Positions 14,064 to 28,357 of a DNA stretch of 64,000 nucleotides are shown one piece after another (position 1 is the first letter of the stretch; the number at the start of each line of letters is the position of its first letter). The translations under genes were made by a program, and so were the position numbers. The stretch covers positions 25,925 to 89,924 of the forward strand of contig JARCRU010000133.1 in assembly GCA_029850535.1 (NCBI GenBank). The letters run 5' to 3'. This DNA is from Actinomycetota bacterium. Lineage in GTDB: Bacteria; Actinomycetota; Acidimicrobiia; Acidimicrobiales; RAAP-2. The notes beneath the pieces were generated by a model that saw nothing but the letters and a program-made list of their open reading frames with translations, had not been told where the DNA came from and made no database searches.

Positions 14064-14771
14064 ATGACGACGGTGTCCAACGTTCAGATGCGCGGTGTGG
14101 CCGACGACATCTTGATGTCCGCCACACACACGGGACTGCGCAGTGGCCACCGTCTCCCCACGGAACGTGATCTCGCCCAGGCCCTCAAACTCTCGCGTAC
14201 CACGATACGCAACGCCATGGCCCTCCTCGAAAGCGAAGGAGTGGTGTCGCGTGAGGTCGGTCGCGGCACGTTCCTGCGACGCGACCCTGACGTGGTGCTG
14301 GGCGTCGAGGTGAGGCACTCGCCCGCTCATTCGGTGGTGGGTAACGTCAGTCCGGCCGACGTGATGAACGCGCGTCTGCTGATCGAACCCGCGGCCCTCG
14401 CCGCCACCGTCGAGAACGCCACGGCGAGTGACTTCGACGAAATCAACCGCTGCCTCGCCGGTGGGGACAACGCCGCCGACTTTGAGGAATTCGAACGCTG
14501 GGATCTTGCGCTGCACCAAGCCTTCGTGCACGCGTCGCACAACCCCCTGATCGAAAACATGTACCACTTCATCGCCGAGGCGAGGCTCTCGGTGACGTGG
14601 GGCAGCTTGAAGCGTCGCAGCGACTCGCCCGAACGTCGCGACTTCTACCGTCAACAGCACCGCGAGATCGCCCAAGCGCTCGCCAATCGTGACGGTCGCG
14701 CCGCGCGTGAAGCGATGTTACGTCACCTCGGCGCGGTGGAGTCCAACCTGCAGCGGGCCGCGCAGAGCTAG
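14064..14771 (+). CDS. GntR family (FadR subfamily, FCD domain) transcriptional regulator
   Basis: RLPTERDLAQALKLSRTTIRNAM..GRGTF wHTH; DLALHQAFVHASHNPL FCD domain. Confidence 0.92.
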   Translation: MTTVSNVQMRGVADDILMSATHTGLRSGHRLPTERDLAQALKLSRTTIRNAMALLESEGVVSREVGRGTFLRRDPDVVLGVEVRHSPAHSVVGNVSPADVMNARLLIEPAALAATVENATASDFDEINRCLAGGDNAADFEEFERWDLALHQAFVHASHNPLIENMYHFIAEARLSVTWGSLKRRSDSPERRDFYRQQHREIAQALANRDGRAAREAMLRHLGAVESNLQRAAQS

Positions 14772-15796
14772 AGGTGTGCGCCGAGATAGATCGAGTCGCG
14801 CACGTGCACGAAGTGCTCCACGGCGTGACTGCGGTGCACTGACGCCGCGAGCGACAACGTGAGGGCGACGCGGGCCTTGCGGGCGTCAAGGACGCCGCCC
14901 GAGATCAACCCTCGCGACAAGAGATCGCTCTCGGAGCCAACGAAACCGTAGGTGTGCTCGTGCACCTCGCCCGCGCCCGTGCGCGAGCACAAGACGACGG
15001 GCATCTGCTTCACCAGGGACTCGAGGAGGGGCACCATGGCCCCCGGCACGTGTCCCGCGCCGAAACCGTCGATGATCGCGCCGCGGTAACCCGACGAATC
15101 GAGCGTCGAGAGAGCTCGCCCGTCGTCACCCAGGGCACAGGTCACGAGGGCGACGGGGGGTGTCTCGCGAAGAACGTCGAGTGCGATGTGGGCCAGAGGA
15201 GTGGGCCGCAGCACCACGCGCACCCGCTCCTCCGCCACCCAGCCCAGGGGACCGCCCGTGTTCGATTGGAACGTGTCGAGGCTCGAGCTGTGCGACTTGC
15301 GCACGAATCGCGCGGCGTGCACCTCGTCATTCATCACCACCACGCACCCCAGTCCTCGGCTGAGCGGCGACGCGGCCACCTTCACCGCCGCGAGGACGTT
15401 ACCCGGCCCGTCGGAACTCGCCAGCGTGGGATTGCGCATCGCGCCGGTAACGACGACCGGCACCGGCAGTTCGAGCAGAACGTCGAGGGCGAAGGAGGTC
15501 TCCTCGATCGTGTCGGTTCCCTGGGTCACCACGACGCCATCGAGGCCACCCTCGACGCGTTGCTTGATCGTTGAAGCCAGCGCGACCACGTCAGCCAGGG
15601 TGAGGTCCCCCGAGGGCAACTGTCGAAATGACAACGTCTCGACGTCGGCCACGTCACGAAGCCCCGGTATCGCGTCCACGAGGTCAGAGGCGGTGAGTTG
15701 CGGCACCACCCCCTGCGCGCCGTGAGAGTTCGTGGAGGCAATCGTGCCTCCCAGAGAGACGACGAGGACCCGGGCCCGCGAAATTGAAGTGTTCAT
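14768..15796 (-). CDS. Asparaginase/glutaminase family amidohydrolase
   Basis: SLGGTIAS, VVTQGTDTIEET, VTGAMRNP, FGAGHVP, SRTGAG; start MNTSIS with GGGGG RBS. Confidence 0.9.
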   Translation of the reverse strand: MNTSISRARVLVVSLGGTIASTNSHGAQGVVPQLTASDLVDAIPGLRDVADVETLSFRQLPSGDLTLADVVALASTIKQRVEGGLDGVVVTQGTDTIEETSFALDVLLELPVPVVVTGAMRNPTLASSDGPGNVLAAVKVAASPLSRGLGCVVVMNDEVHAARFVRKSHSSSLDTFQSNTGGPLGWVAEERVRVVLRPTPLAHIALDVLRETPPVALVTCALGDDGRALSTLDSSGYRGAIIDGFGAGHVPGAMVPLLESLVKQMPVVLCSRTGAGEVHEHTYGFVGSESDLLSRGLISGGVLDARKARVALTLSLAASVHRSHAVEHFVHVRDSIYLGAHL

Positions 15797-15933
15797 CACA
15801 TATCCCCCACGGCACTTCACACTAGATGCGCCGCGGGGGGCGAGAGTCCCTGGGCTACTATCGCAATCACTACCGCCTGGCGTCGCGCGACGCGTCATCG
15901 CACGATCACTCCTCCAGGCGAGGAGGGAGCGTC

Positions 15934-16611
15934 GTGGCTGTCGTCGATCGCACCACCGAGCGCGCTGACCCGTCGCACGTCCTCACGCTGTCGACCTTCG
16001 GCGTCGCGACCATCCACGAAGCCCAGGACCGCACCGGGCTCTTGGCGTCTCGTCTGCGACCGCTCTCTCACGGCACCCGCGTCGCGGGTACCGCTCTGAC
16101 CTGTGAGGTGACGCCGGGTGACAATTCCTCGATCCACCTGGCCGGTGACGTGGCGCGCCGTGGCGACTTCTTGATCGTCTCACCCACGAGCGCGTGCGAC
16201 GACGGTTACTTCGGCGAGCTGCTGGCGACGCACATGGTGGCGCGCGGGGTCGTGGGCCTGGTCATCGACGCCGGCGTGCGCGACGTCGCCGATCTGCGCG
16301 AGATGGGTTTTCCGGTGTGGTCGAGCGCCATCAGTGCACGTGGCACGGTCAAGGAGACCCCGGGCAACGTCCAGGTCCCCCTCGTTTGCGCCGGAGTCGC
16401 CATCGCGCCGGGTGACGTCGTCGTCGCCGACGACGACGGTGTGGTGGTCGTGGCGCGCGAAGACGCGCTCGACGTCATCGCCGAATGCCGACTTCGCGAG
16501 GCCAAGGAATCCGCCTACCGCAAGGCCCTCGCCGCCGGCGAGGGCACCCTCGACTTGTTCGGCCTGCGCCAGAAGTTCCTCGACGCGGGACTGCGCGACA
16601 TCGTCGAGTAG
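15934..16611 (+). CDS. RraA/HMG aldolase family (LigK-like 4-carboxy-4-hydroxy-2-oxoadipate aldolase/oxaloacetate decarboxylase)
   Basis: GVATIHEAQ, GDNSSIH, GYFGELLA, IDAGVRD, PGDVVVADDDGVVVV; AGGAGG RBS before GTG 15934. Confidence 0.85.
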   Translation: MAVVDRTTERADPSHVLTLSTFGVATIHEAQDRTGLLASRLRPLSHGTRVAGTALTCEVTPGDNSSIHLAGDVARRGDFLIVSPTSACDDGYFGELLATHMVARGVVGLVIDAGVRDVADLREMGFPVWSSAISARGTVKETPGNVQVPLVCAGVAIAPGDVVVADDDGVVVVAREDALDVIAECRLREAKESAYRKALAAGEGTLDLFGLRQKFLDAGLRDIVE

Positions 16612-16670
16612 CCGGTGTCGCGTCGCCCGGCGAAGCCGTTAGCGTGAAGTACGAGCACTCCAGGAGGACG

Positions 16671-16952
16671 ATGAACGATCGAACGAGCATCGAAGAATCC
16701 ATTTCTGACGAGGAGCTCACTCGCCTCGCCCTCAGCGCTGACCGCTATCCCGTCATTGACGCGAACACGATGCCGTGGCGGCCCGGTGGCGACGCCGTGA
16801 CGGGACTCCTGCCCGATTGGTACATGCCCGCGCCCTCGGGACGACGCCGTGGCAGGGGCGCCCAGGTGGCCATAGGGGTCATCATCGCGAGTTTCGTGAT
16901 CATCAACGCGCTGGGGTTGTGCATCACCTACGGGTTCTTGACTCTGGCCTAA
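16671..16952 (+). CDS. Small hypothetical membrane protein (93 aa)
   Basis: AGGAGG RBS; MNDRTS...LLPDWYMP...; hydrophobic C-terminal helix. Confidence 0.65.
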   Translation: MNDRTSIEESISDEELTRLALSADRYPVIDANTMPWRPGGDAVTGLLPDWYMPAPSGRRRGRGAQVAIGVIIASFVIINALGLCITYGFLTLA

Positions 16953-17992
16953 TTCGTCTGAGTCGCCCGACGTACCACCGGCAGGACCTCGCTGGCCAGC
17001 AACTCGATCGAGCGGGCCGTCTCCTTGAAGGGCAGTCCGCCGAGGCCGACCTGCGCCAAAAAACGTGTGTGGCCCAACAACTCGTACTCCCAGAGGATCT
17101 TGTCGACGATCTCTTGGGGGCTGCCACAGAATAAAGCGCCGTGCGGGGACGCCCAGTCCTCGAAGGCGTCGCGCGCCAGGGGCACCCCGCGCGCGTGCGG
17201 CATGTTCTCACCGATGTAGCGCGAGTAGTAGGGATAAAAGGCGTCGCGCGCGCCCTGGGACGTCTCGTCGACGAAGAAGTGACTCGTGACGCCTACGCGC
17301 AGGTCCTCGTGGGCCACCGCGTTCTCGCGACCGCTGCGACGATAGATCGCCGCGAGGTCGACGAATCGCTCGGGCTGGCTCAGGATGGCGAAGTAGACGC
17401 CCAAGCCGTGTCGACCGGCGCGCGCCGCGCTCTCGGGAGTCCCCCCGACGGCGATCCACACCGGGATCTCGCCCTCCCACGCACGAGGGTACACGCCCGC
17501 CGCGCGTAAGGGTGGTCGAAAACGACCCGACCAGGTGACGCGCTCGTTGCGATTGATCCGCACGAACAACTCGAGCTTCTCCTCGAACAGGTCGTCGTAG
17601 TCCCCGAGGTCGAATCCGTACAGGGGGAAGGACTCCACGTAGGCGCCGCGACCCGCGGTGATCTCGGCGCGTCCTCGAGAGATCAGGTCCAGGGTCGAGA
17701 AGTCCTCGTAGACGCGTACCGGATCCGACGTCGAGAGAACGGTCACCGCGCTGGTGAGCCGGATGCGCGACGTCGATTCGGCGATAGCGGCCAACACGAC
17801 GGCCGGCGACGAGATCGCGAAGTCGCGGCGGTGGTGCTCGCCCACGCCGAAGACGTCGAGTCCCGCGTCGTCGGCGATCCTGGCGAGCTCGATGAACTCG
17901 CGCAACCGCACGGCGGGACTCACCTCCTCGCCGGTGGGCGAACGCGTCACCTCGCCGAAGGTGAACAGGCCGATTTCCATTCCCGCACTCAT
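16949..17992 (-). CDS. LLM-class flavin-dependent oxidoreductase
   Basis: EIGLFTFGE, FGVGEHHR, SAVTVLSTSDPVRVYEDFSTLD, GRGAYVESF; ATGA overlap with upstream gene. Confidence 0.92.
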   Translation of the reverse strand: MSAGMEIGLFTFGEVTRSPTGEEVSPAVRLREFIELARIADDAGLDVFGVGEHHRRDFAISSPAVVLAAIAESTSRIRLTSAVTVLSTSDPVRVYEDFSTLDLISRGRAEITAGRGAYVESFPLYGFDLGDYDDLFEEKLELFVRINRNERVTWSGRFRPPLRAAGVYPRAWEGEIPVWIAVGGTPESAARAGRHGLGVYFAILSQPERFVDLAAIYRRSGRENAVAHEDLRVGVTSHFFVDETSQGARDAFYPYYSRYIGENMPHARGVPLARDAFEDWASPHGALFCGSPQEIVDKILWEYELLGHTRFLAQVGLGGLPFKETARSIELLASEVLPVVRRATQTN

Positions 17993-18612
17993 CGAGCGAG
18001 CACCCCCTCGAGCCACGGCGACAGGGCTGACGTCACCTCCGGGGACATCGCGTGACCCCCACGTGTGCGATAGGCCTCGAGGTTCGCGCCGGAGTCCTCG
18101 TGGAGGTACTCCCACGTCGCCTCCATCAAGTCGCTCGGCATCACCGGATCATCGATTCCCTGGGCGTGCAGGATGTTGACCCCGGCGAGTCGCTGCGACG
18201 TCGTCGCCACCCCCGCGTCGAAGGGGATCGTCCCGTAGAGCAGGGCCGCCCCCGCGAAACGAGCGGGGTCATCGAGCACCAACGCGCCGGCGAAGGCGGT
18301 GCCGCCGCTGAAGCCCACGAGCACCACCGGTCTCGTGGGCGCCACGGAGTCGAGCCACTCGCGGAACCAGTCGATCGACACACGCAACGACTCGGGCAGG
18401 GGACGGCCAATACCTCGATTCTCGAACCAGGTGAAGGCGGCCTCACCGAGGACGACCCGGCCCCGCACGCAAGCGAGGGCGACGTGCTGGGGGAGCTGGG
18501 TCGCCAACGAGCTGATCTCGAGCTCATTGGAACCACGTCCGTGTAGCAGCACCACCAAGGGGTCTCGCTCGTCCGAGGAACCACTCCACAACACCGTGGG
18601 CGTCGTCACCAC
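17989..18612 (-). CDS. Phospholipase/carboxylesterase family alpha/beta hydrolase
   Basis: LLHGRGSNE, GFSGG nucleophile motif, DPV (Asp), GGH (His). Confidence 0.88.
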   Translation of the reverse strand: MVTTPTVLWSGSSDERDPLVVLLHGRGSNELEISSLATQLPQHVALACVRGRVVLGEAAFTWFENRGIGRPLPESLRVSIDWFREWLDSVAPTRPVVLVGFSGGTAFAGALVLDDPARFAGAALLYGTIPFDAGVATTSQRLAGVNILHAQGIDDPVMPSDLMEATWEYLHEDSGANLEAYRTRGGHAMSPEVTSALSPWLEGVLAR

Positions 18613-18739: not shown

Positions 18740-19507
18740 CTAGATCACCGGCGACATTCCCCCGTCCACGCTGAGACCCACCCCCGTGACGAAACTCGCC
18801 CTCGGCGAGAGGAGGAACGCGGCGACGTCGGCGAACTCCTCGGCGCGCCCGTAGCGACCGAGGGGGATGCGCGCCTTCCTCGCCGCCTCGAGGTAGTAGT
18901 CCTCGGTCGACTGCTGGGCCTGGGCCGCGCGACGCACCCACTGCCCCGACTCGATCAAACCAATCAACACCGCGTTCACTCGGATACCCCGGGGCGCCAC
19001 CTCATTGGCCAGTGCCTTCGTGAACGCCAGTCCCGCCGCACGCGAGGCCGACGTGGGGGTCGAGCCCATCGAGGGTGCGCGCGCAGAGATAGCGAGTACG
19101 TTGAGGATCGCGCCACCACGCCCTTCGAGGTGCTCCAGCGAGGCGCGCGCTATTCGTAGTGCCGCCAACACCTTGAGTTCGTAGTCACTACGCCACTCGT
19201 CGTCGGAGGACGTGGCCACCGGCGTCGCCACCGCCGCCCCGGCATTGTTGACCACGCCATCGAGCCGCGAGAACCTCTCCAACGTCACCTGCAGGAACAT
19301 GTCGCAGTCACTGGCCCGGGTCACGTCCGCTTGCACGCACAGGGCTCGCGATCCCAGGGTCGCCTGGGCAACCTCGAGGCGTTGCTCGTCTCGCCCACAG
19401 ACCGCTACGTTCGCCCCCTCGGCGAGAAGGCGTTGCGCGAGGGCGAGGCCGAGGCCGTCGGTCCCCCCGGTGATCAGTACGGTGCGATCGTTGAGTTCTA
19501 GGTCCAT
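18740..19507 (-). CDS. Short-chain dehydrogenase/reductase
   Basis: TGGTDGLG, VNNAG, IRVNAVLIG, VDGG; the YxxxK position reads TSASR (atypical). Confidence 0.88.
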   Translation of the reverse strand: MDLELNDRTVLITGGTDGLGLALAQRLLAEGANVAVCGRDEQRLEVAQATLGSRALCVQADVTRASDCDMFLQVTLERFSRLDGVVNNAGAAVATPVATSSDDEWRSDYELKVLAALRIARASLEHLEGRGGAILNVLAISARAPSMGSTPTSASRAAGLAFTKALANEVAPRGIRVNAVLIGLIESGQWVRRAAQAQQSTEDYYLEAARKARIPLGRYGRAEEFADVAAFLLSPRASFVTGVGLSVDGGMSPVI

Positions 19508-19541: not shown

Positions 19542-20387
19542 CTAGTGGGTGCGACGTATCTCGACGAGGACGCCCAATTGCGTGGACTCGGGTCCCTGAT
19601 AAATACCCTTGAGGGGCGCGACGTCGTCGTAGTCTCGTCCGTGCCCGACGATGATGTGACGTTGCGTCTCTCGCACGCCGTTCGTCGGGTCGATCCCGGT
19701 CCACGTGCCCGAGAAGTACTCGACCCAGGCGTGGCTCTGACCCTCGACCACGTCGCCGACCTCCGGCTCGGTCGCCGGGTAGAGGTAGCCCGACACGTAA
19801 CGCGCGGGGATGCCCATGGCCCGCAACAGGCCGATGGTGACGTGGGTGATGTCTTGGCAGACGCCCTTGCGTCGGTCCCAGGCCTCCTGGGCCGTGGCCG
19901 ACACCGTGGTGGCCCCGGGCACGTAGGAGACCTCGCCGCGGATAAAGTTCGACGCCGTCTCCACGCACTCGTGCACGTCCGACAGCTTTTGCCACGTCGC
20001 GATCTCGTCCGTGATCGCGCCCACGAGAGCGGTGCGGTGCGTCGGCAGCAAGAACTCCGAGAAGCGGTCGCTCAGGCGTTCGCTGCGCAAGGCGCGCCAG
20101 TCCAGGGGCGTCTCCAGTGTCGCCGCCCAACTCTCCACTTGCGAGGTCGCCTCGACTTCGAGCTGCGGATGGGTCTCTTGGATGTCGAAGGCCGTCACCA
20201 GCGTACCGAAGTAGTCGACGTGGCTCGACAAGGGAACGCTGGGCCGCACGGTGATCCTGGAGGACTGCACCTGCTGGGTGCCCAGGGACCGTGGGGTCAT
20301 GCGGGCCTCGTTATAGGAGGCCTTGGCGAGTCCGTCGTACGTGAACCCCGTGTGATGGCGGATCGCGAGGCCGAGACGTTCGCTCAC
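19542..20387 (-). CDS. Transglutaminase-like protein (Bact_transglu_N plus core domain)
   Basis: IRHHTGFTY..SYNEARMTP; catalytic triad GVCQD, HAWVE, IDPTN; GTGA overlap with alpha-E gene. Confidence 0.9.
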   Translation of the reverse strand: MSERLGLAIRHHTGFTYDGLAKASYNEARMTPRSLGTQQVQSSRITVRPSVPLSSHVDYFGTLVTAFDIQETHPQLEVEATSQVESWAATLETPLDWRALRSERLSDRFSEFLLPTHRTALVGAITDEIATWQKLSDVHECVETASNFIRGEVSYVPGATTVSATAQEAWDRRKGVCQDITHVTIGLLRAMGIPARYVSGYLYPATEPEVGDVVEGQSHAWVEYFSGTWTGIDPTNGVRETQRHIIVGHGRDYDDVAPLKGIYQGPESTQLGVLVEIRRTH

Positions 20388-21337
20388 AGACCCTCCTCGA
20401 TATTCCACACGACGGCGTCCTCGTGACGGAAGTAGCGGTCGGTCACGGCGTCGGTGACGCGAAAGCACGTGGCCTCGAGCATCTCCAAGAGTTCGGGCAG
20501 CTGGTCGATCAGTTGTCGAGGGTCGATGAATTCGAGCGTACCGCGAGCGCGCGCCAGCGCCTGGCGCGCGGCGTCGCCGGAACTGATCCGTTGACCGACG
20601 GGCTGGATCTCGACCAGGCACTCGTCGGCCAGATTGAGCGAGTAGAGCACCGAGCGCGGAAAGAGGCGGTCCAGCATCAAGAAGGCCGCGACGCCGTTGG
20701 CGTCGTTGATCTCGCGGGTGTTGCGCATGAAGGCCTCCATCGCTCCCGACGCGCGCAGGAACGCCATCCAGTCGGGGGCGTTCTCCTCGCTCACCACGCG
20801 TCCGCGCAGCAGTCGCGCGGTCATGTCGATCCTCTCGAGATTGCGACCCAGCACGAGGAACCGCCAGCCGTCGTCGTGACTCAAGGTCGCGTCGGTGAGA
20901 CCGGCCAGGAGCGAGGTGCGTTCGCGCACGTAGGACAGATACGTCGCCGGTCCGAAGTCGCGTGATCGCTTCTCGCGCTTGGGCAATTCGTTGCGCGTCG
21001 TATTGAGCGCCACCCACATCTCAGAGGAGATGTAGTCGCGACTGCGACGCGCATTCTCGTAGGCCCCGTTGAGGGCTCCGGCGATGGAGTTGGGGTTCTC
21101 GATGTCGTAGACGATGGTCTGCAACGTCTCGCCCGTGCGCAGTCGTTGGTTCTCGACCTCGATGCCCAGGATCGAGAAGAGTGACCGACACGTCGCACTC
21201 TCGTCGTTGAAGGGGTCCTCCACCATACGATGCACGTAGGAGTCCACGATGCGCGCGGTGTCGTCCGCGCGTTCGATGTAGCGACCGATCCAGAACAGCG
21301 ACTCGGCGAGTCGCGAGAGCATGCCGCGCTCGCTCAC
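20384..21337 (-). CDS. Alpha-E domain protein (DUF403)
   Basis: MLSRLAESLFWIGRYIERADDTARI and LGRNLERIDMTARLL (two ER motifs), FPRSV. Confidence 0.92.
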   Translation of the reverse strand: MSERGMLSRLAESLFWIGRYIERADDTARIVDSYVHRMVEDPFNDESATCRSLFSILGIEVENQRLRTGETLQTIVYDIENPNSIAGALNGAYENARRSRDYISSEMWVALNTTRNELPKREKRSRDFGPATYLSYVRERTSLLAGLTDATLSHDDGWRFLVLGRNLERIDMTARLLRGRVVSEENAPDWMAFLRASGAMEAFMRNTREINDANGVAAFLMLDRLFPRSVLYSLNLADECLVEIQPVGQRISSGDAARQALARARGTLEFIDPRQLIDQLPELLEMLEATCFRVTDAVTDRYFRHEDAVVWNIEEGL

Positions 21338-22869
21338 TGCTCGCCCTGCTCAAAGATGTACTCGTCGTTCTGGCGCGGCGGGCCCGCGTAACGGCGCGAA
21401 CGCGCGCTCGCGGGCGGTACCGCGCCCCGAAAGGGGATCGATTCGTCATTGAGCACCCAGGTGTCCTTCGAACCCCCGCCGCGCGAGGAGTTGACGATGA
21501 GCTCGCCCTCTCCCAGGGCCACTCGGGTCAGCCCACCGGGCAGGACCCACACGTCCTCGCCATCGTTGACCGCGAAGGGCCGCAGGTCGATGTGACGCGG
21601 CGCGATGCCCTCACCCACGAACGTCGGGTGCGTCGAGAGTGCGACGGGCCGCTGGGCGATGAAATTACGCGGCGCGGCGCTGATCGCCTTGTGCAGGGCC
21701 TTGAGCTCGGTCGTGGTGGCCCGAGGGCCGATGACGATGCCCTTGCCACCCGAACCGTCCACCGGCTTGATCACGTAGCGAGCCAGTTGACCCAGGACCT
21801 CGGCGCGCACCTCGTCGTCGTCGAGGCGATGGGTCTCGACGTTGTCGAGCAGCGGCTTCTCGCCCAGGTAGAAGCGGATGAACTCGGGCACGTAGGTGTA
21901 GATCAATTTGTCGTCGGCCACGCCGTTGCCGATCCCGTTGGAGATGACCACGTTGCCCGCTCGCGCCGCGTTCACGAGACCGGCGACTCCGATCACGGTG
22001 TCGGGTCGAAATTGTAGGGGGTCGAGCCAGTCATCATCGACGCGCCGGTAGATCACGTGCACCGCTCGCTCACCGTTGGTGGTGCGCATGTAGACGTGAT
22101 TGCTCCGACACACCAAGTCGCGGCCCTCGACCAGTTCAACGCCCATCATCCGCGCGAGCAACACGTGCTCGAAGTACGCCGCGTTGAACACGCCCGGGCT
22201 CAGCACCACGATGACCGGCTCCAACGCTTTCGCGGGAGCGGCGGCCAGCAACGCCGCGAAGAGGCGCGAGGGGTAGGAGTCGACCGGGTGCACCCGGTGA
22301 TCCGAGAACAGCGCCGAGAACGCCTGGGTCATGGCCCGACGGTTCTCGATGACGTAACTCACCCCGGAGGGGATTCGTACGTTGTCCTCGAGGACGCAGA
22401 AGTTCCCGTGCTCGTCGCGGATCAGGTCAATGCCCGCGACCGCGATGCGCACCCCGTTGGGGGGCGTGATGCCGAAGGCCGCGCGGCAGTAGTGCGGGCT
22501 CGAGGTGATGACCCGTCGCGGCATGAGGGCCTCGTCGAAGATCCTCCCCTCGCCGTAGACGTCGGCGAGAAACGCCTCGAGCGCGCGCACCCGCTGCGCG
22601 ATGCCCCGGGCGAGGCGGTCCCACTCCAACGCCCCGAGGATCCGCGGCACCAGGTCCAACGGGAATGGTCGCTCCTCGCCACTGTGCGCGAAGGTGACGC
22701 CGCGATCGATGAAGGTGCGCGCGAGTTGCTCGGAGCGTAGGCGCAGTTCCTGGGGCTGATAGGCGTTGATGTCGGCGAGGAGACGTTCGTAGATGGGGCG
22801 GGGCTGACCAGGTGAGGAGAACATCTCGTTCCAGGCCCCCGACGCATCCTCCTCAAAGACGACTCCCAT
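21334..22869 (-). CDS. Circularly permuted type-2 ATP-grasp protein (DUF404/407)
   Basis: FPLDLVPRI, VLEDNVRIPSGVSYVIENR, PGVFNAAYFEH, GNGVADDK, KPVDGSGGKG, NSSRGGGSKDTWV. Confidence 0.93.
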   Translation of the reverse strand: MGVVFEEDASGAWNEMFSSPGQPRPIYERLLADINAYQPQELRLRSEQLARTFIDRGVTFAHSGEERPFPLDLVPRILGALEWDRLARGIAQRVRALEAFLADVYGEGRIFDEALMPRRVITSSPHYCRAAFGITPPNGVRIAVAGIDLIRDEHGNFCVLEDNVRIPSGVSYVIENRRAMTQAFSALFSDHRVHPVDSYPSRLFAALLAAAPAKALEPVIVVLSPGVFNAAYFEHVLLARMMGVELVEGRDLVCRSNHVYMRTTNGERAVHVIYRRVDDDWLDPLQFRPDTVIGVAGLVNAARAGNVVISNGIGNGVADDKLIYTYVPEFIRFYLGEKPLLDNVETHRLDDDEVRAEVLGQLARYVIKPVDGSGGKGIVIGPRATTTELKALHKAISAAPRNFIAQRPVALSTHPTFVGEGIAPRHIDLRPFAVNDGEDVWVLPGGLTRVALGEGELIVNSSRGGGSKDTWVLNDESIPFRGAVPPASARSRRYAGPPRQNDEYIFEQGEQ

Positions 22870-22875
22870 TGTCAC

Positions 22876-22929
22876 AACCTAGGTCGGCTATGTGTACGGA
22901 GTATTTCTAAGTGGTAACGGCGATGTAAC
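22876..22929 (-). promoter_or_regulatory. GlnR-like boxes and leaderless -10 of the ATP-grasp operon
   Basis: Minus strand GTTAC-n6-GTTAC-n6-GAAAT-n6-TACAC (22929-22892); TAGGTT (22881-22876) 6 nt before ATG 22869. Confidence 0.65.
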
Positions 22930-25539: not shown

Positions 25540-26718
25540 GTGTCATCTTCGTCCACGTCGCGCGAGGCCTCCACCCAGGTGGAGCTCACCACCGTGGCCC
25601 TGGGCAACCTCACGGGCGTCTTCATCCTCATCGGCGCGACCTCGTCGCTCTTCGGCCCCTTGCTGGTGACGTTCTCGCACCACTTCTCGATCTCGCTCCC
25701 GCGCGCCGGCGAGGTGCTGAGCGTCTATTTCGTCGGTGCCCTCATCGGGGTGGTACCGGGCTGGTGGGGGCTCAAGCACACCACTGGGCGCCGGGTCTTG
25801 ACGGTCTCACTCCTCACGGTCGCGCTGGGAACCCTCTGCACGGGGCTCGCGCACTCGTGGATCCTCTTCCTGGCCAGTATCTCGCTACTGGGGTTGGGTT
25901 TCGGATCACTCGATATGAGTCTCAACGTACTGCTCGCGCGCACCGCCGTCGCCGGTCGCGCGCACCGCTTGAGTTTCGTCAACGCCGGTTACGGTCTGGG
26001 CGCGGTGATCTGTCCGCTGCTGCTCGTCCTGGTGCACCCCAGGAACTTTCCGGCCGTCTTCGCGGGCATCTCGCTCCTCGCCGTGCTCCTCACCAGTTTC
26101 AACGCGGGCGTGCACGCCCCGGCGCTCAAGACCGAGGCGCTCCAGGGCGAGATCAACGCCCACAAGTCCCAGCGCTGGCCGATCCTGCTCTCCTTCGTGG
26201 CGGCGTACATCTTCTACGTCGCCATGGAGACGAGCGCGTCGGGGTGGATTTCGTCTCAACTCCAGCGTGGTGGCTACTCGACGACGACGGGTAGCTTGGT
26301 GACCGCAGCCTTCTGGATGGGTATGACCATCGGCCGCAGCCTGGGTGGTCCCCTGCACCGGATCTTCAACGACCGCCGGCTCATTCTCGGCGGTCTGAGC
26401 CTGGCGGTCCTGGCCGACCTCGCGGCGACCTCCAACCACCTGGCTCTGGCGACCTATCCGCTCCTCGGTCTCATCTTGGCGTCGGTCTTTCCCATGGGTC
26501 TGGTCTGGTACACCCGCCTGCTGCCCCACGACAGCGACGGCGTCACCCTCATCTTGTTCGCGATGATGGCGGGCGGCGTGATCGGTCCGGGCGGCGTGAG
26601 CCTCTTGGTGTCGCACTTCGGCGTACGCGCGATCCCCTTCGCCTTCGCGGGCTTCGCCGCCCTCGACCTGGCGATCTTCGCGAGCATCGTGCGATTCACC
26701 CCCGTCGAACTGTCCTGA
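25540..26718 (+). CDS. MFS transporter (sugar permease-like)
   Basis: About 12 hydrophobic segments, GFGSLDMSLN, YGLGAVICP, YVAMETSASGW; GGAGG RBS. Confidence 0.85.
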   Translation: MSSSSTSREASTQVELTTVALGNLTGVFILIGATSSLFGPLLVTFSHHFSISLPRAGEVLSVYFVGALIGVVPGWWGLKHTTGRRVLTVSLLTVALGTLCTGLAHSWILFLASISLLGLGFGSLDMSLNVLLARTAVAGRAHRLSFVNAGYGLGAVICPLLLVLVHPRNFPAVFAGISLLAVLLTSFNAGVHAPALKTEALQGEINAHKSQRWPILLSFVAAYIFYVAMETSASGWISSQLQRGGYSTTTGSLVTAAFWMGMTIGRSLGGPLHRIFNDRRLILGGLSLAVLADLAATSNHLALATYPLLGLILASVFPMGLVWYTRLLPHDSDGVTLILFAMMAGGVIGPGGVSLLVSHFGVRAIPFAFAGFAALDLAIFASIVRFTPVELS

Positions 26719-26751: not shown

Positions 26752-28245
26752 TTAGAGGTTCTGCTGAATCTCCATCAAGATGGCGTGGCGATCCTCCTTG
26801 GAGGGCATCTCGAAATACGGCGCCTTCTTGTACCAGTACCACGCCATCGGCACGAGCCCGAGCGCCATCGAGCCCAGTCCCACGATCTTCGTGGTGCCAT
26901 TGAGTCCCGGGATGACCTTGAAGAAGACGACGGTCATGAAGATGGCGCCGAGCAGTGGCCACAGTCCCATGAAGATGAAGTTCTTGACCGACTTGAAGAG
27001 TTGGCGACGGTAGAGCACGATGACCGAGAATCCCGCGAGCGCGTAGTAGATACAGATCTGGATGCCAATGGCCGAGTACCCGTCCTGGAGGATGTTGTAC
27101 ACCGACCCGATGTACTGCGAGCCCACGAACAGCGCCAGTGAGATGACGGTAACCACCACCGTGGCGACCAGGGGCGTGCGGCGCGTGGAGTGCACGTGAC
27201 CGAGCGCCGCCGGCAGCGTCTTGTCACGTCCCATCGAGAACATCGTGCGCGTCACCTGGATCAGCGTCGTCTCCAGGGTCGCGATCGTCGAGAGGAGCAC
27301 CGCGACCACGATGAGCTTGCCGAACCAGCCCGGCGCGACGAGCTGACCGAGGCGCGCCAGGATGTCGGCCGAGTAGGGCGAGTTCGCACCCATGTCCTTG
27401 GCCGGGATCACCATGGTCGAGCCCACGGTGAAGACCTCGAACAACAAGAACACCACGATGGTCCCCAAGATGCCACCCATGCCCGACGTCGACGTGGGCG
27501 CCGTGGTCGTGGTCGCGGCGTCACCCACCCTGGTCTCCTCGTTCAGATTGGCCGTCACGTCCCAACCCCAGTAGTAGAAGGCCGAGAGCAGTGCTCCGGC
27601 GAAGAACGTGTTGCCCGAGGAGGTCTTGAACACGTTGGGCGAGAACCAGCTCCACGAGAAGGGCGCGCCCAACTTGTGCGAGTGAAAGATGGCCAGGCCG
27701 GCGAAGAGCAGCAGGAACGCGATCTCGATGCAGGACATGATGATCTGCACCTTGACCGTGACGGTCACGCCCGCCGCCACCGCCCAGACCATCGCCAGGA
27801 AGAAGACCGCCCCGAGGATGGTGATGAGGGCCTTGTTGGACGCCAGTGACGGACGGAAGATGTCCAGCACGTTCGAGCCAGCCGGGAAGGTGGCGATCAC
27901 CATGAAGATCAGCGCGGAGACGATGAGCGCCCAGCCCGCCATGTAGCCGAGGAAGGGGTGCAGCGCCCGGCGCACCCACGAGTAGGTCGCCCCCGCGGTG
28001 GAGTCGGACTTCGAGAGGTAGTTGAAGGCGAAGACGATACCGAACATGAAGAACCCGCAGTAGAGCAACGACGCCGCCCCGCCGACGCCGACGGCGGCGA
28101 AGAGGAAGAGGGTCGTGGCCGAGATCGAATACGCGGGCGCCGAACCCGCAATACCCATGATCGCGGAGTCGAAGAGCCCGAGGACCCCCGATTTGAGGGA
28201 GTGCTCGGGCGAACCCGATTGGCTGGGGACAACGGTGTCGGTCAC
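26752..28245 (-). CDS. APC-family amino acid/amine permease
   Basis: GIAGSAPAYSI, YSWVRR, YWGWDVTANLNEE, RTMFSMGRD, RRTP; GTG start with AGAGG RBS. Confidence 0.9.
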   Translation of the reverse strand: MTDTVVPSQSGSPEHSLKSGVLGLFDSAIMGIAGSAPAYSISATTLFLFAAVGVGGAASLLYCGFFMFGIVFAFNYLSKSDSTAGATYSWVRRALHPFLGYMAGWALIVSALIFMVIATFPAGSNVLDIFRPSLASNKALITILGAVFFLAMVWAVAAGVTVTVKVQIIMSCIEIAFLLLFAGLAIFHSHKLGAPFSWSWFSPNVFKTSSGNTFFAGALLSAFYYWGWDVTANLNEETRVGDAATTTTAPTSTSGMGGILGTIVVFLLFEVFTVGSTMVIPAKDMGANSPYSADILARLGQLVAPGWFGKLIVVAVLLSTIATLETTLIQVTRTMFSMGRDKTLPAALGHVHSTRRTPLVATVVVTVISLALFVGSQYIGSVYNILQDGYSAIGIQICIYYALAGFSVIVLYRRQLFKSVKNFIFMGLWPLLGAIFMTVVFFKVIPGLNGTTKIVGLGSMALGLVPMAWYWYKKAPYFEMPSKEDRHAILMEIQQNL

Positions 28246-28303
28246 GACAACCTCTTTCTTGTGGGTATCACCTTCAATTGGAAACTTCTCAAATGTGGAA
28301 CTC

Positions 28304-28357
28304 AACATAGCCGCCGCCACGACCCCGCACGGGTCATCAAGGTTTCGGCGTCGTGAA
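28304..28357 (-). promoter_or_regulatory. GlnR-like box and -10 upstream of the APC permease
   Basis: Minus strand TTCAC-n6-GAAAC-n6-GACCC (28357-28331), 21 nt, then TATGTT (28309-28304). Confidence 0.55.

Follow-up and report, generated by a model that had tools for sequence, protein, structure and literature searches.

A probably nitrogen-regulated ATP-grasp, Alpha-E and transglutaminase-like operon in a peat Acidimicrobiaceae genome, and the glutamine-ended tail of its ligase

On what substrate does an operon act that encodes a putative amide ligase, a helical protein known as Alpha-E and a transglutaminase-like thiol enzyme? The question is raised by the three genes at positions 22869-19542 (minus strand) of a 64,000-nucleotide (nt) stretch, here called the window, from contig JARCRU010000133.1 of an uncultured Actinomycetota bacterium (assembly GCA_029850535.1, contig positions 25,925 to 89,924). 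Among bacterial operons whose enzymes are readily recognized but to which no product has been assigned, the triad is one of the most widespread, and Mycobacterium tuberculosis has two versions of it. The answer that we favor, tentatively and as something short of probable, is that the operon specifies an amide ligase induced by nitrogen limitation, together with Alpha-E and a thiol amidase or transferase, and that in this clade a glutamine-ended tail of the ligase serves as the working substrate or primer. The copy itself is ordinary; what we add is the regulatory and tail evidence around the operon.

The locus is an intact copy of the long-known COG2308/COG2307/COG1305 triad (Rv2411c-Rv2409c type), with a full-length circularly permuted ATP-grasp gene, an Alpha-E gene and a gene for a transglutaminase-like protein lying adjacent, in that order, on the minus strand. 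A reading of the DNA made from the sequence alone (the sequence-only reading) had described three genes coupled by GTGA overlaps and with all motifs intact, and both observations held on closer analysis. The overlaps are found at 21337-21334 and 20387-20384. The ligase (511 residues; 22869-21334, minus strand) matches the Pfam models CP_ATPgrasp_2 (PF14403, 1.6e-152, model positions 1-374 of 374) and CP_ATPgrasp_1 (PF04174, 2.4e-144), both over their full length, and matches the PDB entry 3N6X by sequence at 1e-141. Its start is the ATG at 22869, which we take as the conserved one because relatives lack the GTG found here at 22875. Alpha-E (317 residues; 21337-20384, minus strand; PF04168, 9.9e-76) may begin with the GTG of the first overlap, an alternative start being the ATG at 21322, immediately before the conserved MLSRLAES. 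Both of its ER motifs, IGRYIERADDTAR and LGRNLERIDMTAR, are intact, and residues E22, R23, E168 and R169 are invariant among 37 homologues. The transglutaminase-like protein (281 residues; 20387-19542, minus strand) matches Bact_transglu_N (PF08379, 4.5e-21) and Transglut_core (PF01841, 1.5e-18); its closest PDB match is 3ISR (1.8e-12), a structural-genomics 'putative cysteine protease'. The residue triad of Cys177 (19857-19859), His219 (19731-19733) and Asp233 (19689-19691) is invariant among 22 homologues. On reading the three sequences we found no hydrophobic N-terminus in any of them, and the ligase, Alpha-E and the transglutaminase-like protein should therefore all be cytoplasmic.

The host genome is a 2.48-Mb metagenome-assembled genome (MAG), about 94% complete, of an uncultured member of the peat Acidimicrobiaceae, and it holds the ATP-grasp gene in single copy. 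Its closest public relatives are Acidimicrobiaceae and Acidimicrobiales MAGs from palsa, bog and other soils, with ligase identities of 87-94%. The triad is accessory, being carried by 10 of 25 genomes of the same genus, and Alpha-E was found in 49 of 301 sampled Actinomycetota genomes (16%); the ligase family as a whole comprises 11,566 cluster representatives at E <= 0.001. We collected 80 related loci, from Acidimicrobiia, Trebonia, Frankia, Pseudofrankia and others, and the order of the three genes is kept in essentially all of those long enough to show it. Clustering of the 763 open reading frames (ORFs) of these loci revealed no fourth conserved gene; the fourth-largest cluster is an artefact, made up of antisense frames in high-GC DNA. 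PADLOC models of anti-phage defense and NCBIfam models matched none of the three proteins, and an Rfam search at the locus returned nothing.

The first line of evidence concerns the promoter. Upstream of the ligase gene, four GlnR-type pentamers with 11-bp phasing read GTTAC-n6-GTTAC-n6-GAAAT-n6-TACAC (22892..22929, minus strand), the last of them lying over the -35 position. A -10-like hexamer, TAGGTT (22876..22881, minus strand), stands 6 nt before the ATG, and relatives keep TAGGTT, TAGGGT or TAGCGT at the same place. This close spacing implies that transcription of the operon would start at or next to the ATG, and thus that the mRNA would be leaderless or nearly so. The GlnR-type boxes are conserved among relatives while the spacers vary, and they match the GlnR consensus of M. 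smegmatis, Gn2AC-n6-GnAACA (PMC3662644). In the M. tuberculosis GlnR complex (PDB 8HIH), four protomers sit on 5-bp sites separated by 6-bp spacers around -35 (PMC10235972).

The same genome offers points of comparison. A nitrogen cluster (contig C51, 8942-14054) consists of nadE, for a glutamine-dependent NAD synthetase, diverging from glnII, which is followed by glnA and a gene of OmpR type. The product of the latter gene, directly after glnII-glnA, has GlnR (8HIH) as its best PDB match, at 2.4e-34 versus 1.9e-27 for RegX3. The divergent glnII/nadE spacer holds a TTTAC-n6-TTAAC box, and amtB is preceded by TTCAC-n6-GAAAC-n6-CTAAC-n6-GAAAT. The sequence elements of a GlnR regulon, that is, promoter boxes, a GlnR-like gene and the same motif at core nitrogen genes, are thus all present.

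To see how far the box extends, 43 non-redundant clusters of orthologous upstream regions, covering Acidimicrobiia, Frankia, Pseudofrankia and others, can be compared. In 22 of them the pattern [GT]TNA[CT]-n6-GNAA[CT] is found between positions -38 and -54 relative to the start; the corresponding rates are 0.6% for random windows of 120 nt and 1.5% for the genome's 1,083 other promoter regions, an enrichment that is inflated, and a probability that is overstated, because the pattern was picked after examples had been seen. This circumstance weighs against GlnR control, as do the absence of a strict match from about half of the clusters and the silence of the papers on the M. smegmatis and M. 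tuberculosis GlnR regulons, in which the orthologues go unmentioned (main text and supplements; the gene numbers used for M. smegmatis may be wrong). Control by GlnR therefore does not extend to the whole phylum. Despite the post hoc choice of pattern, so large an enrichment at so constant a position is hard to explain otherwise, and we consider, from the sequence, that the operon is probably under GlnR-type control.

This prediction has a parallel outside the phylum. The homologous operon is reported to be the most strongly induced gene set in nitrogen-limited Pseudomonas putida, and in Burkholderia cenocepacia it is strongly dependent on NtrC and sigma-54 (PMC3235984, PMC5666114, PMC5491218). 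Unrelated regulators, a predicted GlnR here and NtrC/sigma-54 in Proteobacteria, therefore appear to tie the operon to nitrogen limitation across phyla, which argues for a conserved role in nitrogen starvation. The sequence-only reading had suggested a nitrogen link from the GlnR-like boxes, and the conservation of these boxes in orthologous promoters, along with the parallel to the data from P. putida and B. cenocepacia, supports that link at the level of sequence. The same reading had also proposed nitrogen storage, a role that fits poorly with induction by nitrogen starvation.

What chemistry would be induced? The AlphaFold2 (AF2) model of the ligase, with a predicted template modeling score (pTM) of 0.83, was compared with known folds using Foldseek. 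The best match was 3N6X, followed by glutathione, homoglutathione and glutathionylspermidine synthetases, YgiC/YjfC and trypanothione synthetase. Matches to the folds of the glutathione synthetase and glutathionylspermidine synthetase (GspS) type had E values of 4e-14 to 4e-8 and query-normalised TM scores of 0.4-0.6, at an identity of 11-15%, and by these values the ligase shares their fold. Circular permutation of the ATP-grasp fold is also a trait of the eukaryotic type of glutathione and homoglutathione synthetase. The annotation of 3N6X as a 'putative glutathionylspermidine synthase' is the depositor's label only. In every characterised fold relative of the ligase, a small peptide is activated at its C-terminal carboxylate and coupled to an amine. 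By analogy with them, the ligase would convert the C-terminal carboxylate of a peptide to an acyl phosphate before coupling it to an amine. A homologue of the ATP-grasp protein from Yersinia frees phosphate from ATP (PMC6376114).

Alpha-E is predicted to be all-helical (predicted local distance difference test score, pLDDT, 86.9; pTM 0.88). We found no relative of it in the PDB by sequence and no PDB fold match, the best hit having an E value of 0.15 and a TM score of 0.31; on these values the NIT domain of NasR was rejected as a fold relative. In one genome of the same order (L022), the ligase and Alpha-E occur as a natural fusion of 845 residues. This argues that the two work as one unit, and Alpha-E may be an obligatory partner subunit of the ligase. 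The sequence-only reading had instead proposed Alpha-E as an acceptor of added amino acids; nothing points there, and the conserved glutamine-ended tail is on the ligase. At the C-terminus of Alpha-E (20384-20420), the disordered last 12 residues keep a W-x-x-E/D-G sequence in most Actinomycetota homologues. This end is lost in distant homologues and partly overlaps the start of the next gene; a likeness to the tail of LysW-type carriers was set aside because of that loss.

The third protein, with its Cys-His-Asp triad, would deamidate, cleave or transfer a glutamine or amide end. Ligase and thiol enzyme would then make and break the same kind of bond, as do the two halves, synthetase and amidase, of the bifunctional glutathionylspermidine synthetase/amidase (GspSA). 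A make-and-break account of the ligase, Alpha-E and the transglutaminase-like protein, with induction by nitrogen limitation, is the best-supported one for the operon.

The same fold relatives leave room for a small molecule as the substrate. As the first step in drawing nitrogen from an amine or amino acid taken up by the cell, the ligase may couple that compound to a metabolite with a carboxylate group, with the transglutaminase-like enzyme later hydrolysing the amide, much as in the gamma-glutamylation of polyamines or ethanolamine or in the glutathionylspermidine synthetase/amidase cycle; the tail of the ligase would then be incidental or regulatory. That the characterised relatives all act on small peptides and amines, that induction by nitrogen limitation is predicted and that most members of the ligase family lack a tail would all fit such a route. 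So would a permease. The window encodes an APC-family amino acid/amine permease (Pfam AA_permease_2; 26752-28320, minus strand, or 26752..28357 with its box) preceded by a GlnR-type box of its own, TTCAC-n6-GAAAC at 28342-28357, and it is possible that this gene belongs to the same regulon as the triad. The permease family adjoins the operon in several relatives (L026, L031-L033, L040 and L041), directly upstream and on the same strand in L031, and perhaps feeds the route. The position of the permease is variable, however, and its specificity is not assignable, no specific NCBIfam subtype having matched it. Moreover, no metabolic gene is conserved with the triad in the 80 loci, and the route leaves unexplained both the [D/E]-Gln end of the ligase and its presence on the transglutaminase-like protein of loci with tail-less ligases. 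A 2026 preprint that still treats Rv2411c and Rv2567 as uncharacterised reports that neither makes gamma-aminobutyric acid (GABA)-trehalose (10.64898/2026.04.15.718621), which rules out one product only. We regard a small-molecule route as rather unlikely.

The second line of evidence, and the one that leads us to a peptide, is the tail at the C-terminus of the ligase. Conservation of the enzyme core stops at about residue 475, which is also the end of the match to 3N6X, and 36 residues extend beyond it (residues 476-511; 21337..21444, minus strand), comprising a variable linker, an RQ element and a terminal [D/E]-Gln (...PPRQNDEYIFEQGEQ). This segment has an AF2 pLDDT of 26-32 and is thus predicted to be disordered. 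Neither the length nor the sequence of the tail is constant among related ligases, but the RQ element is kept. The ligase ends in Gln in 44 of 61 related loci and in [D/E/Q]Q in 43 of them, versus 3.9% and 0.8%, respectively, of the proteins of this genome; since the 61 loci share ancestry these counts are not independent events, which lessens what they can say for the tail. A terminal Gln is found in none of 57 Alpha-E proteins and in two of 56 transglutaminase-like proteins. Immediately after the ligase stop codon of one locus (L058, 7000-7070) there are more CAG repeats in other frames, each ending in TGA (cagcagcagcagTGAgcagcagcagcagTGA), as if a poly-glutamine tract had left remnants there or undergone slippage.

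No other peptide offers itself at the locus. The sequence-only reading had noticed no ORF for a precursor peptide, and this proved correct: the 130-nt spacer upstream of the operon contains only chance ORFs, of 31-37 residues, that overlap the regulator boxes, and the 80 related loci have no small ORF in common. A conserved precursor of the kind used for ribosomally synthesized and post-translationally modified peptides (RiPPs), of graspetide type, is thus absent from the spacer and from the related loci.

Could the glutamine end be a by-product of coding? The end of the ligase gene may simply combine a Shine-Dalgarno sequence with the overlapping start of Alpha-E and have been inherited by descent, an explanation that would be silent on function. 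In its favor, GGN-GAR-CAR-TGA can double as a ribosome-binding site and overlapping start codon for Alpha-E, and the stop codon is TGA in all 43 loci. There is also a precedent among the relatives, since the Cys at the end of Frankia-type ligases is exactly such a by-product. In these ligases (L064, L075, L083-L086, L088 and L095), the start of Alpha-E, ATG-CTG-AGC for Met-Leu-Ser, overlaps the stop codon as A-TGC-TGA; the terminal Cys was accordingly rejected as a feature of the tail. The overlap with the start codon constrains only the third base of the last ligase codon, however, which is CAG or CAA, and the codon before it is acidic in 36 of the 43 loci, with all four GAN codons in use. 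Half of the tails read CCN-GAN-CAG, with a proline codon before the acidic one, unlike a Shine-Dalgarno sequence. Nine loci have the Alpha-E start 8-133 nt further downstream and nonetheless keep both the terminal Gln and the acidic residue before it, and the Frankia-type tails retain internal glutamine runs of six to seventeen residues. Finally, in the two complete operons of the set whose ligases lack a tail (L102 and L103), it is the transglutaminase-like protein that ends in QQAQQ. A mere coding by-product therefore seems improbable to us.

The tail is not a constant of the family. In a distant operon with a tail-less ligase (L121) the transglutaminase-like protein ends in VQQQ, and in two other distant operons that were sampled (L123 and L125) no component ends in Gln, so that a rule by which one component always ends in Gln was rejected. 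The glutamine-ended feature is common but not universal among the operons.

A glutamine-ended segment also bears on the idea that the triad tags proteins for degradation. Iyer et al. reportedly read the triad in 2009 as an amide-ligase/peptide-tagging system. Valas and Bourne had drawn attention to it in 2008 (PMC3235984), and in many bacteria, including many Proteobacteria and Cyanobacteria, it is linked with the Anbu peptidase (PMC5666114, PMC6376114). In tagging for degradation, the classical interpretation put forward by Iyer and by Valas and Bourne, the ligase would mark proteins, the transglutaminase-like enzyme would remove or trim the mark, and a protease, Anbu or, in the present case, the 20S proteasome or another, would recycle the amino acids during nitrogen starvation. 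The link to Anbu and the induction by nitrogen limitation agree with this proposal, and the flexible, glutamine-ended tail resembles the end of Pup. The genome also has a complete Pup-proteasome cluster (contig C45, 30974-37269), encoding Mpa/ARC, Dop, Pup ending in KGGQ, PrcB, PrcA and PafA.

Several observations speak against it. The sequence-only reading had found no Anbu gene nearby, and we can extend this to the whole genome, in which the only matches to the proteasome family (PF00227) are an adjacent pair on contig C45 that we read as PrcB and PrcA. Neither Anbu nor any other linked protease gene was found in the 80 related loci, and the four-gene Anbu operon is thus not the form present here. 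There is no separate small tag protein, the tail belonging to an enzyme of 511 residues, and for this task Pup, Dop and PafA are already at hand in the organism. The Anbu papers of 2017 describe the published hypotheses on the operon as unconfirmed: in Yersinia, no peptidase activity of Anbu was found, and in pull-downs with Anbu as the bait none of the other operon proteins formed a stable complex with it (PMC6376114, PMC5666114). Taken together, these points make tagging for degradation by the triad, to our minds, quite doubtful. The sequence-only reading had described the triad as an amide-ligase system predicted by comparative genomics, with its substrate not established, and our literature search, which covered later work as well, found no characterization of its function.

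We return to the account that we favor, in which the tail is the working substrate or primer. GlnR, encoded beside glnA, would switch the operon on when nitrogen is scarce, as NtrC does in Proteobacteria, and the ligase with Alpha-E would supply the amide bonds that the thiol enzyme breaks or transfers. The most speculative step is the use of the ligase's own [D/E]-Gln tail as the substrate or primer in this clade. Possibly, the transglutaminase-like enzyme processes the tail, either converting Gln to Glu or capturing it as a thioester, and the ligase then extends or conjugates it, in loose analogy to the handling of Pup, with its Gly-Gly-Gln end, by Dop and PafA. The tail is the leading candidate for a substrate or primer in this clade, and it gives a named peptide to test in place of a blind substrate screen.

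Some of the evidence pulls the other way. In addition to the dependence among the tail counts and the dual reading of GGN-GAR-CAR-TGA, AF2 does not place the tail on the ligase, and the Yersinia pull-downs provide no support for a stable assembly of Anbu with the operon proteins. That most ligases of the family are tail-less, and that L123 and L125 have no glutamine-ended component, further implies that the tail cannot be a general substrate of the family.

A bolder version of this account would make the glutamine-ended tail a mobile working part, carried by the ligase in this clade and, in other operons, by the transglutaminase-like protein or by an Alpha-E of reduced length. The operon would then run a self-contained cycle in nitrogen starvation in which one of its own components is modified at the C-terminus, with the thiol enzyme deamidating or capturing the Gln and the ATP-grasp/Alpha-E pair re-amidating, extending or conjugating it. 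We consider this version unlikely.

After the transglutaminase-like gene, and separated from it by 34 nt in which there is no terminator-like site, comes a gene for a short-chain dehydrogenase/reductase (SDR) oxidoreductase (Pfam adh_short; 18740..19507, minus strand), which may be co-transcribed with the triad. It adjoins the operon only in close Acidimicrobiaceae relatives and not further out, and it is doubtful that it forms part of the triad system. Further downstream (14768-18612) there are genes for an asparaginase, an RraA-like aldolase, a luciferase-like monooxygenase and an alpha/beta hydrolase, which are not conserved with the operon in relatives. Among the related loci, two (L095, 4116-5893, and L096, 4177-5975, minus strand) carry two extra transglutaminase-like paralogues upstream of the triad, on the opposite strand.

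Four known systems can be set beside the operon. The closest is the core of the Anbu operon itself, as in M. tuberculosis (Rv2411c-Rv2409c) and B. cenocepacia (I35_5080-5083), with which it shares the three Pfam families, their order and their tight coupling; the response to nitrogen limitation that is predicted here also matches the published NtrC and nitrogen data for that core. It differs in having no Anbu gene and in its predicted GlnR boxes, which take the place of a sigma-54/NtrC promoter. It differs, too, from the triad elsewhere, in which most ligases are without the disordered [D/E]-Gln tail that the ligase carries here. The promoter resembles those of the GlnR regulon (amtB and the DNA of 8HIH) in its four 5-bp sites with 6-bp spacing around -35 and in the gTnAc and GnAAC types of these sites, which occur in the order a-a-b-a here versus a-b-a-b there.

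The likeness to GspSA of E. coli (2IO7, 3O98) lies in the neighborhood of the ATP-grasp fold and in the pairing of two opposed activities, since the bond made by the ligase is undone by a thiol amidase. The identity to our ligase is only 11-15%, however; the amidase of GspSA is a fused CHAP domain, whereas here it would be a separate protein of transglutaminase fold; and GspSA has no Alpha-E partner, while no link to glutathione or polyamines was found for the triad.

Pupylation has been linked to nutrient recycling in mycobacteria. The Pup-Dop-PafA system differs from the operon in its parts: its ligase is glutamine-synthetase-like and not of the ATP-grasp type, its tag is a free Pup of 64 residues that ends in Gly-Gly-Gln, whereas the tail here is part of a 511-residue enzyme and ends in [D/E]-Gln, and the triad stands without linked proteasome genes. 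The triad thus has neither the glutamine-synthetase-like ligase nor the free tag ending in GGQ or GGE by which a Pup-type system is recognized. The likeness is in logic only, and consists of a disordered, glutamine-ended segment, an amide ligase and an enzyme that may deamidate or cleave. If the self-modifying cycle were nevertheless to prove true, it would represent Pup-like chemistry arising from unrelated folds.

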